Assembly (NCBI GenBank): GCA_016184005.1
Contig: JACPDL010000003.1
Span: forward strand, 380,974 to 444,973
Length of the DNA: 64,000 nt
Source of the DNA: Candidatus Aenigmatarchaeota archaeon
GTDB lineage: Archaea; Aenigmatarchaeota; Aenigmatarchaeia; GW2011-AR5
Reading direction: 5' to 3'
The number at the start of each line of letters is the position of its first letter. Positions within the stretch are counted from its first letter, which is position 1. Positions 36,770-55,484 of the stretch are shown in pieces. Made by a program: the position numbers and the translations under genes. The notes beneath the pieces are model-generated. The model ran no database searches and was not told the origin of the DNA. It saw nothing but the letters and a program-made list of their open reading frames with translations.

Positions 36770-37112
36770 AAGGAGAAAACCTAGGTTTCCTGCAGAGAAC
36801 CTAAGTTCTCTGAGGTCTCAACTCGAGGAAAGCAAAGCTTTCCTGAGTCTTCAGAAACCTTTGGTTTCTGCAAGAAGAGCGAAGCTCTTTGCAGATCTCC
36901 TTTCTAATCCTCATTCCTAATCAAGAATATTATTTTTCTCGCTCAGAAAACAAAGTTTTCTGGCGTCTCAAAGAGCATGGCTCTTTGCAGATTTCCCAAG
37001 GATTTTCTTTTCTCTAAAGGAAGAGGGGTTATCTGCAGAAAGCAAAGCTTTCTGAGATGTCAGAATTGCTTTGCAATTCTGCACATAGGGGAGAAAACGC
37101 AGTTTCTCCCTA
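36770..37112. repeat. Tandem array of about ten different perfect hairpins (6-9-bp AG-rich stems, 3-6-nt loops) filling the aspS-downstream spacer.
   Basis: The hairpins read directly are AAACCTAGGTTT, CAGAGAAC-CTAA-GTTCTCTG, AGGAAAGC-AAA-GCTTTCCT, CAGAAACC-TTT-GGTTTCTG, AAGAGC-GAA-GCTCTT, CAGAAAAC-AAA-GTTTTCTG, CAAAGAGC-ATG-GCTCTTTG, CAGAAAGC-AAA-GCTTTCTG, CAGAATTGC-TTT-GCAATTCTG and GGGAGAAA-ACGCAG-TTTCTCCC. Confidence 0.7.
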
Positions 37113-46170: not shown

Positions 46171-46327
46171 TGTCAAGGACCACCGTCTGAAGACGGTGGC
46201 TTGCTGAAATTTCTGAATCCTTGAGCACATGGTAAACCAAAGGTTTACCTGTGTCGCAAAGCCCAAAGCTTTGCAACAATTCGCATTCCCTGAACCACTG
46301 CTTAAAAACAATGGAATGCGAAGTATA
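46171..46327 (+). repeat. About 105-bp two-hairpin repeat element (copy 1) with a nested 51-bp two-hairpin insertion at 46228-46278, immediately upstream of the lysK start.
   Basis: The sequence TGTCAAGGACCACCGTCTGAAGACGGTGGC...CGCATTCCCTGAACCACTG-CTTAAAAACA-ATGGAATGCGAAGT matches copies at 53432-53539 and 55118-55225. The insert CATGGTAAACC-AAA-GGTTTACC...GCAAAGC-CCAA-AGCTTTGC is flanked by a CA duplication. Confidence 0.65.
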
Positions 46328-46331
46328 AATC

Positions 46332-53431: not shown

Positions 53432-53539
53432 TGTCAAGGACCACCGTCTAAAGACGGTGGCATGCTGAAATTTATGAATCCTTGAGCAATTCGCATTCCC
53501 TGAACCACTGTTTAAAAACAGTGGAATGCGAAGTTTCAA
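53432..53539 (+). repeat. About 105-bp two-hairpin repeat element (copy 2), intergenic.
   Basis: Identical to copy 3 over about 100 nt. Hairpins are CCACCGTCT-AA-AGACGGTGG and CGCATTCC[ctgaa]CCACTG-tttaaaaa-CAGTGGAATGCG. Flanked by TCAA on both sides. Confidence 0.65.
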
Positions 53540-53543
53540 TCAA

Positions 53544-53861
53544 TTAATATCTCCCCATACTCCCGTCAATTTTCAGTGCCCAGTCTTCTACGCCGCCTTT
53601 CATGGACACGGCATTGAAACCCATTTGCTTCAAGAAATTTGCCGCCTTCAGGCTTCTGTTTCCTGTGTGGCAGTAAACGATGATTTTCTTTTTCTTCGGC
53701 AATTCATCCAGGCGCGATTGTATTTCTCTCATTGGTATATGCACGTCGTTTTTGATAGCGCATATATCCCGTTCCCAGCCCTCGCGAACATCGAGTAAGA
53801 CAACACTATCTCTGGAAATCATCTCTGAAGTTTCTTCTACAGTTACTTCCATATCGTTCAT
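53544..53861 (-). CDS. Rhodanese-domain sulfurtransferase.
   Basis: 105 aa. The active-site loop is IVYCHTGNRS. Single rhodanese domain. Confidence 0.75.
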   Translation of the reverse strand: MNDMEVTVEETSEMISRDSVVLLDVREGWERDICAIKNDVHIPMREIQSRLDELPKKKKIIVYCHTGNRSLKAANFLKQMGFNAVSMKGGVEDWALKIDGSMGRY

Positions 53862-53873
53862 ATAGTCACCAAA

Positions 53874-54113
53874 TGCTCTCGGCGGGATTGCTGCAAAGAG
53901 CGAAGCTGTTTGAGCCCTCGATGAGCTACGCTCAACTCGAAGAAGCCCAAAGGCCTTCTTGAGTTTACAGAAAGTTTCACTTTCTGATAAATCGAAGGTG
54001 AACCCAGGGGTTCAAATCTTATGCTCTCGGCGGGATTGCTTCAGAAACCAAAGGTTTCTGAGCTCTCGGCGAGCTGCGCTCAGCCGCAGATGAACCCAGG
54101 GGTTCAAATCTTA
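53874..54113 (-). repeat. Tandem partial duplications of the tRNA-Glu 3' end, interspersed with mini-hairpins.
   Basis: The 17-nt tRNA 3' terminus (reverse complement AATCCCGCCGAGAGCAT) recurs at 53874-53890 and 54022-54038, in addition to the real tRNA at 54113-54129. A 40-nt unit (tgaacccaggggttcaaatcttatgctctcggcgggatt) occurs twice. Between the copies lie diverged 45-nt repeats and the hairpins AGAAACC-AAA-GGTTTCT, CAGAAAG-TTTCA-CTTTCTG and GAAGCCC-AAA-GGCCTTC. Confidence 0.6.
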
Positions 54114-54237
54114 TGCTCTCGGCGGGATTTGAACCCGCGTCCGCGGCGATCTCCAGTTTTTCCCCGAGGGCTTTTGCGCCTCAGCGGAAAAGGGCTCTGA
54201 GAGGCCACTATCCTTGACCGGGCTAGACTACGAGAGC
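54114..54237 (-). tRNA. tRNA-Glu (anticodon CUC) with a 49-nt canonical 37/38 intron (54149-54197).
   Basis: The acceptor stem is GCTCTCG/CGAGAGC with discriminator A. The D arm is GTCT-AGCCCGGTCAA-GGAT. The anticodon stem is GTGGC/GCCGC and the loop is CUCUCA|C. The T arm is GCGGG-TTCAAAT-CCCGC. The intron's BHB central helix is CTCT/GGAG with bulges CA|G and AT|C. Confidence 0.75.
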
Positions 54238-54283
54238 TGCTGAAGCATATACAGCTTTTTAGCACATTTAAATGCTACCTTAA

Positions 54284-54907: not shown

Positions 54908-55058
54908 GATGAGCTTTTCTCTAATTAACTTTAAATAGAAATTAAGACAAAGGGTTGAATGGCAATAATCACATAAAGTCATGTTCTAAACGGTTATCGT
55001 ATCGCTTGCTTTGATGAAGGAATATGATGGTAAAGTTCTAAGATTGGAGCGATACGAA

Positions 55059-55484
55059 ATGTATAAAATTTACCATTCCCAGAAGTTTGATAAAGAATTA
55101 GATAAATTTGGCAAAGATGTCAAGGACCACCGTCTAAAGACGGTGGCATGCTGAAATTTATGAATCCTTGAGCAATTCGCATTCCCTGAACCACTGTTTA
55201 AAAACAGTGGAATGCGAAGTTTCAAAGAGCGAGTCAATAAAATTGAAGATCAGCTAGTAAAGAATCCTAATGTTGGATCTCCTTTAGGAATTTCATGGTT
55301 AAGAGAAAAGAGATATGGTAAATATAGAATTTATTACATTATTTATGAAGACTTGAAATCTGTTTTTATGGTAGCTATTAGTGAGAAAAAAGATCAGCAG
55401 AAAGTTATCAATACAGTTAAAATTCTTTTAGAATACTTCAAAGAAGAAATAAAAGAATTAGTGGATAAGAATAAAATTACTTAA
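55059..55484 (+). pseudogene. RelE/ParE-family toxin gene split in frame by a 102-bp insertion of the 105-bp repeat element (55122-55223).
   Basis: The N-terminal piece MYKIYHSQKFDKELDKFGKDV (55059-55121) and the ORF 55212-55484 (..KERVNKIEDQLVKNPNVGSPLGISWLREKRYGKYRIYYIIYEDLKSVFMVAISEKKD) share one frame and together form a canonical RelE/ParE sequence. The insert carries an in-frame TGA. The flanks are TCAA/TCAA. No BHB fit is found at this junction. Confidence 0.55.
55118..55225 (+). repeat. About 105-bp two-hairpin repeat element (copy 3), inserted into the relE-like gene.
   Basis: Same sequence as copy 2. Confidence 0.65.

Follow-up and report, generated by a model that had tools for sequence, protein, structure and literature searches.

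The stretch of DNA considered here, called the window in the following, comprises 64,000 nucleotides from a Candidatus Aenigmatarchaeota archaeon. It contains three copies of a short repeat element with two hairpins, one of which lies inside a gene for a RelE/ParE-family toxin (relE), one directly upstream of lysK and one behind a rhodanese gene (Table 1). Each half of the element matches exactly three sites, compared to 0 expected in shuffled sequences, and an nhmmer profile of the element family detected no copies beyond these three in the 64-kb window. A related insertion sequence (IS), which encodes the transposase TnpA and is regarded below as the parent of the repeat, was found in other samples. 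The element was previously read on the plus strand of the window, whereas the strand quoted for its copies in Table 1 is the tnpA-sense strand of the parent IS.

Table 1. Coordinates of the element copies, their parts and the neighboring genes in the window (MAG, metagenome-assembled genome; ORF, open reading frame)
Feature	Position	Strand	Remarks
Toxin gene, 5' part	55059..55123	+	codons 1-21 plus 2 nt; alternative in-frame start at 55014
First in-frame TGA from the element	55152..55154	+	toxin cut off after 31 codons
Toxin gene, 3' part	55226..55484	+	called in the source MAG as an ORF of 90 aa, with the element-supplied ATG at 55212 as its start
Convergent partner gene, 44 aa	55477..55611	-	intact; 8-nt overlap with the relE 3' end; putative antitoxin
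Element copy 3	55124..55225	- (tnpA-sense orientation of the parent IS)	102 nt, inside relE; nhmmer 121 bits
Target TCAA of copy 3	55120..55123	+ (TTGA on the tnpA-sense strand)	host-derived; conserved ATG directly before it (55117-55119)
Hairpin 1 of copy 3	55127..55146		CCACCGTC-TAAA-GACGGTGG; perfect 8-bp stem; on the tnpA-sense strand, the hairpin at the right end of the IS
Hairpin 2 of copy 3	55191..55210		CCACTGTT-TAAA-AACAGTGG; perfect 8-bp stem; product of the core deletion joining the two IS ends
Element copy 2	53438..53539	-	102 nt, intergenic, starting 5 nt after the rhodanese gene stop codon
Target TCAA of copy 2	53434-53437
Element copy 1	46177..46329	-	153 nt, long subfamily, decayed, ending 2 nt before the lysK start codon
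Target TCAA of copy 1	46173-46176
Two-hairpin module of copy 1	46228..46278		51 nt, between the two domains of the copy; CA/CA flanks

The 102-nt elements of copies 2 and 3 are identical, and over 112 nt the identity is 99% with the sole mismatch in the flank. On the plus strand, the element starts behind its target as (A)TG-TCAA↓GGA-CCACCGTC-TAAA-GACGGTGG-CATGC (the arrow marks the insertion point here and below), continues to TCCTTGAGCA-ATTCGCATTCC-CTGAA and hairpin 2 (CCACTGTT-TAAA-AACAGTGG), and closes with AATGCGAAGTTTCAA at the element end. Both hairpins follow the form CCACYGYY/RRCRGTGG with 8-bp stems and a TRAA loop on the same strand, giving similar palindromes near both ends. Terminal inverted repeats are absent, the ends GGACCACC... 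and ...GAAGTTTCAA being non-complementary in all 13 aligned copies. TCAA stands before every copy and also forms the end of the element itself in copies 2 and 3; in the decayed copy 1 the terminal TCAA has been lost to a degenerate TAAA and hairpin 2 contains two mismatches. RNA folding of the element is stable on both strands (z = -3.9 and -4.4), and the Rfam search returned no family at gathering thresholds, nor at E<=1.

The interrupted toxin gene

When the 102 nt of copy 3 are removed and one TCAA is kept, an uninterrupted ORF of 107 aa results, which starts at 55059 and reads GATGTCAA↓AGAGCG across the joined junction. The insertion point corresponds to the codons GAT-GTC-AAA of the toxin gene, in which the element lies in antisense orientation. 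The reconstructed protein matches the Pfam family ParE_toxin (26 bits versus a cutoff of 23) and has 168 homologues of ~105-112 aa with identities up to 74%, several of them named RelE by JGI; aligned with 20 intact homologues it shows no gap and no lost residue at the junction KDV↓KERV. An alternative excision of 105 nt, in which the flanking ATG/CAT is counted as part of the element, was rejected: it costs one residue relative to all 20 homologues, and therefore the flanking ATG is host sequence. In the intact homologue P0002 (locus L025), the DNA is 76% identical to the window and exactly the ~102-nt block is absent, hence the window shows the disrupted state of the gene. The insert introduces TGA stops in frame and has no motif for splicing, so that the toxin gene is broken; its two halves are in frame because the element length is a multiple of three. 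Judged from the DNA sequence, the insertion of copy 3 has split and inactivated this RelE/ParE-family gene, which is predicted to be a pseudogene.

These results agree in large part with a preliminary description of the window. It had claimed three discrete copies at about these coordinates with two hairpins, flanking TCAA and no terminal inverted repeats, and had regarded them as mobile elements and not as parts of longer genes; the absence of matches expected from shuffles, the two perfect 8-bp stems and the TCAA before every copy bear this out. Its further claim that one copy sits in a RelE-like gene, leaves both halves in the same frame and disarms the toxin likewise holds, as seen from the gapless ParE_toxin-positive protein after 102-nt removal and from the TGA stops, of which the first is listed in Table 1.

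The closest database entry to the toxin, P0001, is the 90-aa 'hypothetical protein' HYU56_03830 of Candidatus Aenigmarchaeota archaeon, which equals the 3' portion of the gene. This entry is now recognized as the tail of a toxin gene that was disrupted by a probable transposon, which is useful for annotation and pseudogene calling in MAGs. The Logan contig L001, which carries P0001, stops inside the element, as assemblies commonly do at repeats; the element also matters as a breaking point of short-read assemblies.

The 44-aa partner gene also adjoins P0002 in the same convergent arrangement with an 8-nt overlap, the two partner proteins being 84% identical, and the protein has no Pfam family match. 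In classical type II modules, the antitoxin gene is located upstream in the same operon; the convergent arrangement of the toxin gene and the 44-aa gene is unusual for a type II toxin-antitoxin pair. Upstream of the toxin gene, positions 55014-55058 of the window contain an in-frame ATG and 39 extra nt compared to the intact homologue (MKEYKVYHS...), so that the protein would read MKEY-DGKVLRLERYEMY-KIYHS. The true toxin start may be at 55014, with a 13-residue N-terminal insertion.

The parental insertion sequence and its target site

A scan with the left hairpin across one genome per species revealed copies in three other Aenigmatarchaeota MAGs, GW2011_AR5 included. The copy at locus L002 adjoins an ORF of 119 aa that encodes an IS200-type Y1 transposase (Pfam Y1_Tnp, 101.7 bits). 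Aligned with this IS, the left 83 nt (3 mismatches) and the right 29 nt (identical) of the element correspond to the two IS ends, which are separated in L002 by a gap of 493 nt holding tnpA. The undamaged IS was found at locus L007 and in several other samples; it is 649 nt long and encodes a TnpA of 136 aa (P0121; Pfam Y1_Tnp, 111.4 bits), which aligns over its full length to the solved TnpA proteins of ISDra2 and IS608 and conserves the HUH (DHVHLL) and Y..Q (EEYVKNQ) motifs. The IS sits inside a HAD-hydrolase gene at TTGA↓CAT, the site used by the short elements, and its removal with one TTGA kept yields an ORF spanning the entire Pfam Hydrolase profile (positions 1-191). Hairpin 2 is absent from the parent IS and arose by the deletion, which joined CCACTGT of one end to ACAGTGG of the other; this deletion-made hairpin mimics the native ones in its CCAC...GTGG stem foot and its TTTA loop on the tnpA-sense strand.

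Genome and metagenome scans resulted in ~15 independent insertion loci from at least five Aenigmatarchaeota genomes or metagenomes, and the viral contigs searched contained no element copies. The flank on the hairpin-1 side is TG-TCAA in all loci, preceded by A in most and by T, C or G in few of them, and the far end is TTTCAA in nearly all loci, TTTCAT in L015 and L023, and TATAAA in window copy 1. The insertion site on the tnpA-sense strand is TTGA↓CA(T), which corresponds to ATGTCAA↓ on the plus strand of the window. In L015, L023 and window copy 1, the TCAA on the left is not matched by the one on the right, an observation that speaks against a target duplication. In 13 non-redundant copies with 46 proposed base pairs, 97.1% of the cells are paired and 9 pairs show double compensatory changes, a level of pairing and covariation reached by 0 of 500 shuffles, while slid-partner controls give values of 0-1. 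Examples are the changes from CCACCGTC/GACGGTGG to CCACTGCA/TGCAGTGG in hairpin 1, which has double compensatory changes in 3 of its 8 pairs, and from CAAGGA/TCCTTG to CAATGA/TCATTG. It follows from the compensatory changes that the hairpins and the 7-bp helix, which includes the terminal TTGA, are under selection, and this would fit a recognition of structured single-stranded DNA by TnpA.

The geometry in tnpA-sense orientation is canonical, in that the first hairpin is 36 nt away from the left end (12 nt in the short element), the last one is 7 nt away from the right end, and tnpA is encoded on the top strand. The three window copies share their orientation, as do the two copies of the AR5 contig; of 28 large genes, ~24 are encoded by the minus strand, and the GC skew of the plus strand is weakly negative. 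Orientation and skew are weakly compatible with the tnpA-sense strand being inserted into the template of the lagging strand, a comparison that is confounded by the coding bias.

Consequently, the window element fits the published definition of the palindrome-associated transposable elements (PATEs), which lack inverted repeats, carry palindromes near their termini and go back to a core deletion of IS605-type transposons (PMC3119063); it probably also fits in the absence of target duplication that belongs to this definition. The repeat is very probably a PATE-type, non-autonomous element of the IS200/IS605 family that is moved by a Y1/HUH TnpA, and its copy 3 disrupts the toxin gene. Such an element would have originated when the 493-nt core including tnpA was deleted from an IS200-like IS of ~650 nt and both ends were fused. 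The 136-aa Y1/HUH TnpA would then act in trans through single-strand 'peel-and-paste' transposition, with the hairpins as presumed recognition structures. Insertion would take place at 5'-TTGA↓CA(T)-3' of the tnpA-sense strand, without true target duplication, as the element ends in the tetranucleotide of its target. In the toxin gene, antisense insertion of copy 3 would have introduced the TGA stops and left a pseudogene beside the intact 44-aa partner gene. Being a core-deleted IS200/IS605 derivative would explain why the element lacks inverted repeats, has its hairpins close to the ends and is flanked by TCAA. A classical miniature inverted-repeat transposable element (MITE) was rejected, given that terminal inverted repeats are absent and the transposase of the parent IS is of the Y1 and not of the DDE type. 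From the preliminary description, which had seen small non-coding hairpin elements, the mobility was retained; the element is, however, no orphan but an IS200/IS605 internal-deletion derivative.

Several observations weigh against this interpretation. No tnpA was found in the 64-kb window, and the protein search gave no close TnpA from an NCBI source. An exact empty site was found for none of the window copies: the closest intact relE in the database is 74% identical, and the exact-protein lookup of the rhodanese gene, made for the empty site of copy 2, returned no record. By sequence alone, the TCAA...TCAA flanks are also compatible with a 4-bp duplication at a TCAA-specific site. Furthermore, ISDra2 inserts at TTGAT and IS608, which ends in TCAA, at TTAC, and we know of no requirement of either for CA(T) 3' of the insertion point. 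By its sequence, the flanking CAT could possibly pair with the ATG within the CATG that directly precedes the right-end hairpin on its 5' side. With the orientation reversed, the entire heptamer ATGTCAA would come to lie 5' of the insertion point, where the family leads one to expect it; if the plus strand were the active one, the distances from hairpin to end would be 3 nt and 36 nt, which is non-canonical.

Three further observations concern the related loci. In L007 (3370-3385), the codons for E-Y-V-K-N-Q (GAA TAT GTC AAG AAT CAG) include ATGTCAA, the reverse complement of the target heptamer; tnpA itself thus offers a potential insertion site to its own family. In L009 (3425-3620), a metagenome contig, the same tnpA is followed by unrelated sequence with a tRNA-like gene instead of the usual right end and the HAD gene, which points either to a chimeric assembly at the repeat or to another, second insertion that lacks the right end. 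Moreover, diverged CCAC...GTGG hairpin pairs occur in L018 (1770-1880) and L016 (190-320), e.g. CCACCAT-TTTAG-ATGGTGG and CCACTGCC-TAAA-GGCAGTGG, and suggest further related PATE or IS subfamilies in those genomes.

Nested modules, reading frame and rival explanations

The long copy 1 carries an additional two-hairpin module (Table 1). Homologous modules occur at the same position in L014/L020 of archaeon GW2011_AR5 and in L015, which together with copy 1 makes three loci in three genomes; these homologues differ by 3 nt in length, and one stem has changed in a compensatory manner from GGTAAACC/GGTTTACC to GATAAACC/GGTTTATC. Because of the homologous modules in L014/L020 and L015, the long form represents an older subfamily that spread after it had gained the module. 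The preliminary description was thus right about an insert of two mini-hairpins with CA/CA flanks, but its notion of active, layered mobility does not stand, considering these homologous modules and the decay of copy 1. Other modules are found at other positions: L022 has a different two-hairpin module just 3' of hairpin 1, flanked by CATG/CATG, and in L018/L021 and a fragment beside L003 a module lies inside the hairpin-1 loop. The other-position modules are 51-57 nt long, and the flanking short repeats vary (CA, CATG, AA). Modules have hence been gained repeatedly across the family. A BLAST search over all fetched loci for free-standing copies of the nested modules found none outside PATE copies.

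Free-standing mini-hairpins of similar style are present in the window, with 25 perfect 8-bp hairpins versus ~4 expected. About 10 consecutive mini-hairpins form a cluster at 36780-37110, in the spacer between aspS and a gene of 1584 aa; they have 8-9-bp stems (e.g. CAGAAAGC/GCTTTCTG) and 3-4-nt loops, and many follow CAGAAAsC-NNN-GsTTTCTG. Similar clusters occur in related loci. For the cluster at 36.8 kb, Tandem Repeats Finder detected no periodicity, nor was there an Rfam match. These mini-hairpins may resemble the repetitive extragenic palindromic (REP) sequences and bacterial interspersed mosaic elements (BIMEs), and the nested modules may come from a genome-wide pool of such REP-like mini-hairpins. 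A separate observation concerns the minus strand at 53860-54265, where an intron-containing tRNA (Rfam, 54114-54237) is followed by two more copies of its 3' end; these consist of AATCCCGCCGAGAGCAT plus ~25 nt, are 96% identical and lie 92 and 148 nt apart, with mini-hairpin-rich DNA between them. The arrangement looks like small integrations or rearrangements that took place repeatedly at this end of the tRNA. ARAGORN made no call in this tRNA-like region, whereas Rfam calls one tRNA.

A further property of the family is that the element lengths are multiples of three in 12 of the 13 copies (102, 105, 108, 153, 156 and 159 nt; the exception is L015 with 157 nt). One frame of the tnpA-sense strand (frame -1; TTG AAA CTT ... 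= LKLRIPLFLNSGSGNANCSRIHKFQHATVFRRWSL) is without stops in 10 of 13 copies, including the three copies with independent 51-57-nt modules, while the remaining five frames nearly always contain 1-5 stops. Six of seven independent indel events are multiples of three (p ~0.007), the chance of all three modules being stop-free is ~0.036 by shuffling, and the combined probability, calculated post hoc, is ~2.5e-4. Three copies are in the open frame within genes: in L017 the copy lies within a host ORF two codons before its stop (...TTG ACA TGA), in L023 it directly follows the start codon of the gene for a membrane protein resembling DUF998, and in L024, an NCBI MAG, the called 136-aa protein P0160 has the element peptide at residues 46-81. 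Three genic insertions are disruptive, namely the window relE (antisense), the AR5 gene of 170 aa in L005 (sense, other frame) and the HAD gene (full IS). A profile search with the frame -1 peptides against 5.8 billion proteins gave no hit, and therefore in-frame fusions are rare in current data; an exhaustive phmmer search with the element peptide identified one true case, P0160. Two other groups of matches were judged coincidental and rejected: P0161-P0167 are CRISPR-array-like translated repeats (FNGATAFRRWK), which match ATVFRRW via a similar GCCAC..GTGG hairpin, and the score of an ankyrin-repeat protein is the sum of 13 weak repeat matches. It is conceivable, yet in our view rather doubtful, that the PATE lineage has been shaped for compatibility with translation, i.e. 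that multiple-of-three lengths and one open frame have been kept and in-frame genic copies survive as peptide insertions; the family would then be an archaeal, IS200/IS605-derived counterpart of the Rickettsia palindromic elements (RPEs) in a gene-dense DPANN genome.

The in-frame position of copy 3 could also be taken to mean that the relE transcript loses the element as an intron-like or otherwise processed insert, e.g. an archaeal bulge-helix-bulge intron, and that the toxin is still made. The insert is indeed exactly 102 nt long and leaves both gene halves in frame, and its RNA fold is stable at the z = -3.9 given above. In a bulge-helix-bulge intron, both borders lie in 3-nt bulges with a 4-bp helix between them. 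However, in the predicted fold the 5' border of the element pairs with the internal TCCTTGA and the 3' border is unpaired, no helix joins the borders, and the start of the supposed intron (GGAC/AAGG) is not complementary to its end (GUUUCAA). In addition, identical copies exist in intergenic DNA, and the IS relationship accounts fully for a sequence that lacks an Rfam match at E<=1. We consider removal from the transcript hardly credible, and neither function nor splicing can be deduced from the in-frame position, given the in-frame TGA stops and the lack of a bulge-helix-bulge motif at the borders. The hairpins flank a Y1/HUH enzyme, this transposase was recovered at a single locus in many samples, and the mini-hairpin clusters in intergenic DNA resemble BIMEs, which together would suit REP/BIME-like repeats maintained by a domesticated, immobile transposase of the REP-associated tyrosine transposase (RAYT) type, instead of true transposon copies. 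But the tnpA-bearing unit, whose ends and target are those of the short elements, is itself inserted in the HAD gene, hence the whole unit transposed; in the short elements the ends are defined and the target is fixed, their copy number is low, and TnpA is short (136 aa) and closest to the transposases of ISDra2 and IS608. This makes maintenance by an immobile enzyme very improbable.

An explanation that gives the host a larger part is that the element serves mainly as a structured small RNA or as a regulatory module, e.g. a promoter or an element for RNA stability, and that it was spread and retained by the host. Here, the strong covariation could be quoted, as well as the positions of two copies: the hairpin-2 loop TTAAAAA of copy 1 (46302-46308) precedes the lysK ATG (46332) by 27 nt, the distance predicted for the TATA box of a leaderless mRNA, and copy 2 is located just 3' of a gene. 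Nevertheless, recognition of DNA hairpins by a transposase equally predicts covariation, copies also interrupt genes (relE and the L005 gene), and the element has no match in Rfam. As a primary function this is unlikely, although a regulatory or small-RNA role may be secondary and is compatible with the transposon explanation. The gene lysK is presumably essential, and one might speculate that copy 1 supplies its promoter.

With the IS200/IS605-derived PATE as the preferred explanation, a previously unannotated DPANN repeat gains a mechanistic identity consisting of parent IS, transposase and target site; our literature search yielded no publication on such mobile elements in Aenigmarchaeota. 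Preservation of the frame and extension of the target deserve further attention. If frame preservation is true, it would be a second independent case of selfish palindromic DNA adapting to genes, in this case with a known transposase family and therefore experimentally tractable.

Comparison with known systems

The closest relatives in structure are the haloarchaeal PATEs, e.g. HqIRS46 and the terminal-only ISHwa23 of Haloquadratum walsbyi (PMC3119063). Like the window element, they lack terminal inverted repeats, have similar palindromes near their termini, are too short for a transposase and go back to the core deletion of an IS605-type transposon; they make no target duplication, which is probably true of the window element as well, and in Haloquadratum small repeats are likewise found inserted in the PATE palindromes (PMC3119063). 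In contrast to them, the host here belongs to the DPANN archaea (Aenigmatarchaeota), and the parent is an IS200-type IS of ~650 nt with tnpA only and not one bearing tnpB (IS1341). Target conservation crosses the insertion point in the present family (TTGA↓CAT), which also differs by its lengths of 3n nucleotides and its one open frame.

With ISDra2 and IS608 (TnpA structures 2XM3 and 2A6M/2VHG), the parent IS shares a Y1/HUH transposase with the HUH and Y..Q motifs, subterminal hairpins on one strand and a fixed short target. The protein identity is ~30-35%, as estimated from the alignment, and unlike in those systems there is no tnpB here. Furthermore, the right-end cleavage site would lie within the covarying 7-bp helix (TCAAGGA/TCCTTGA) that encloses the hairpin.

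Regarding REP/BIME sequences and their RAYT enzymes (PMC2817692), hairpin repeats tied to an IS200-like Y1 enzyme are common to both systems. The present elements, however, have defined two-hairpin ends, a fixed target, a mobile tnpA-bearing parent and a low copy number. RPEs and in-frame MITE fusions (PMC10969869) are likewise stop-free palindromic repeats that lie in frame in coding genes and add a peptide, as appears to be the case here in L017, L023 and L024. The RPEs have no known transposase and are mostly inserted in frame, whereas in the Aenigmatarchaeota family one of five frame-and-orientation combinations is open within a gene and the other copies, including that in relE, are disruptive.

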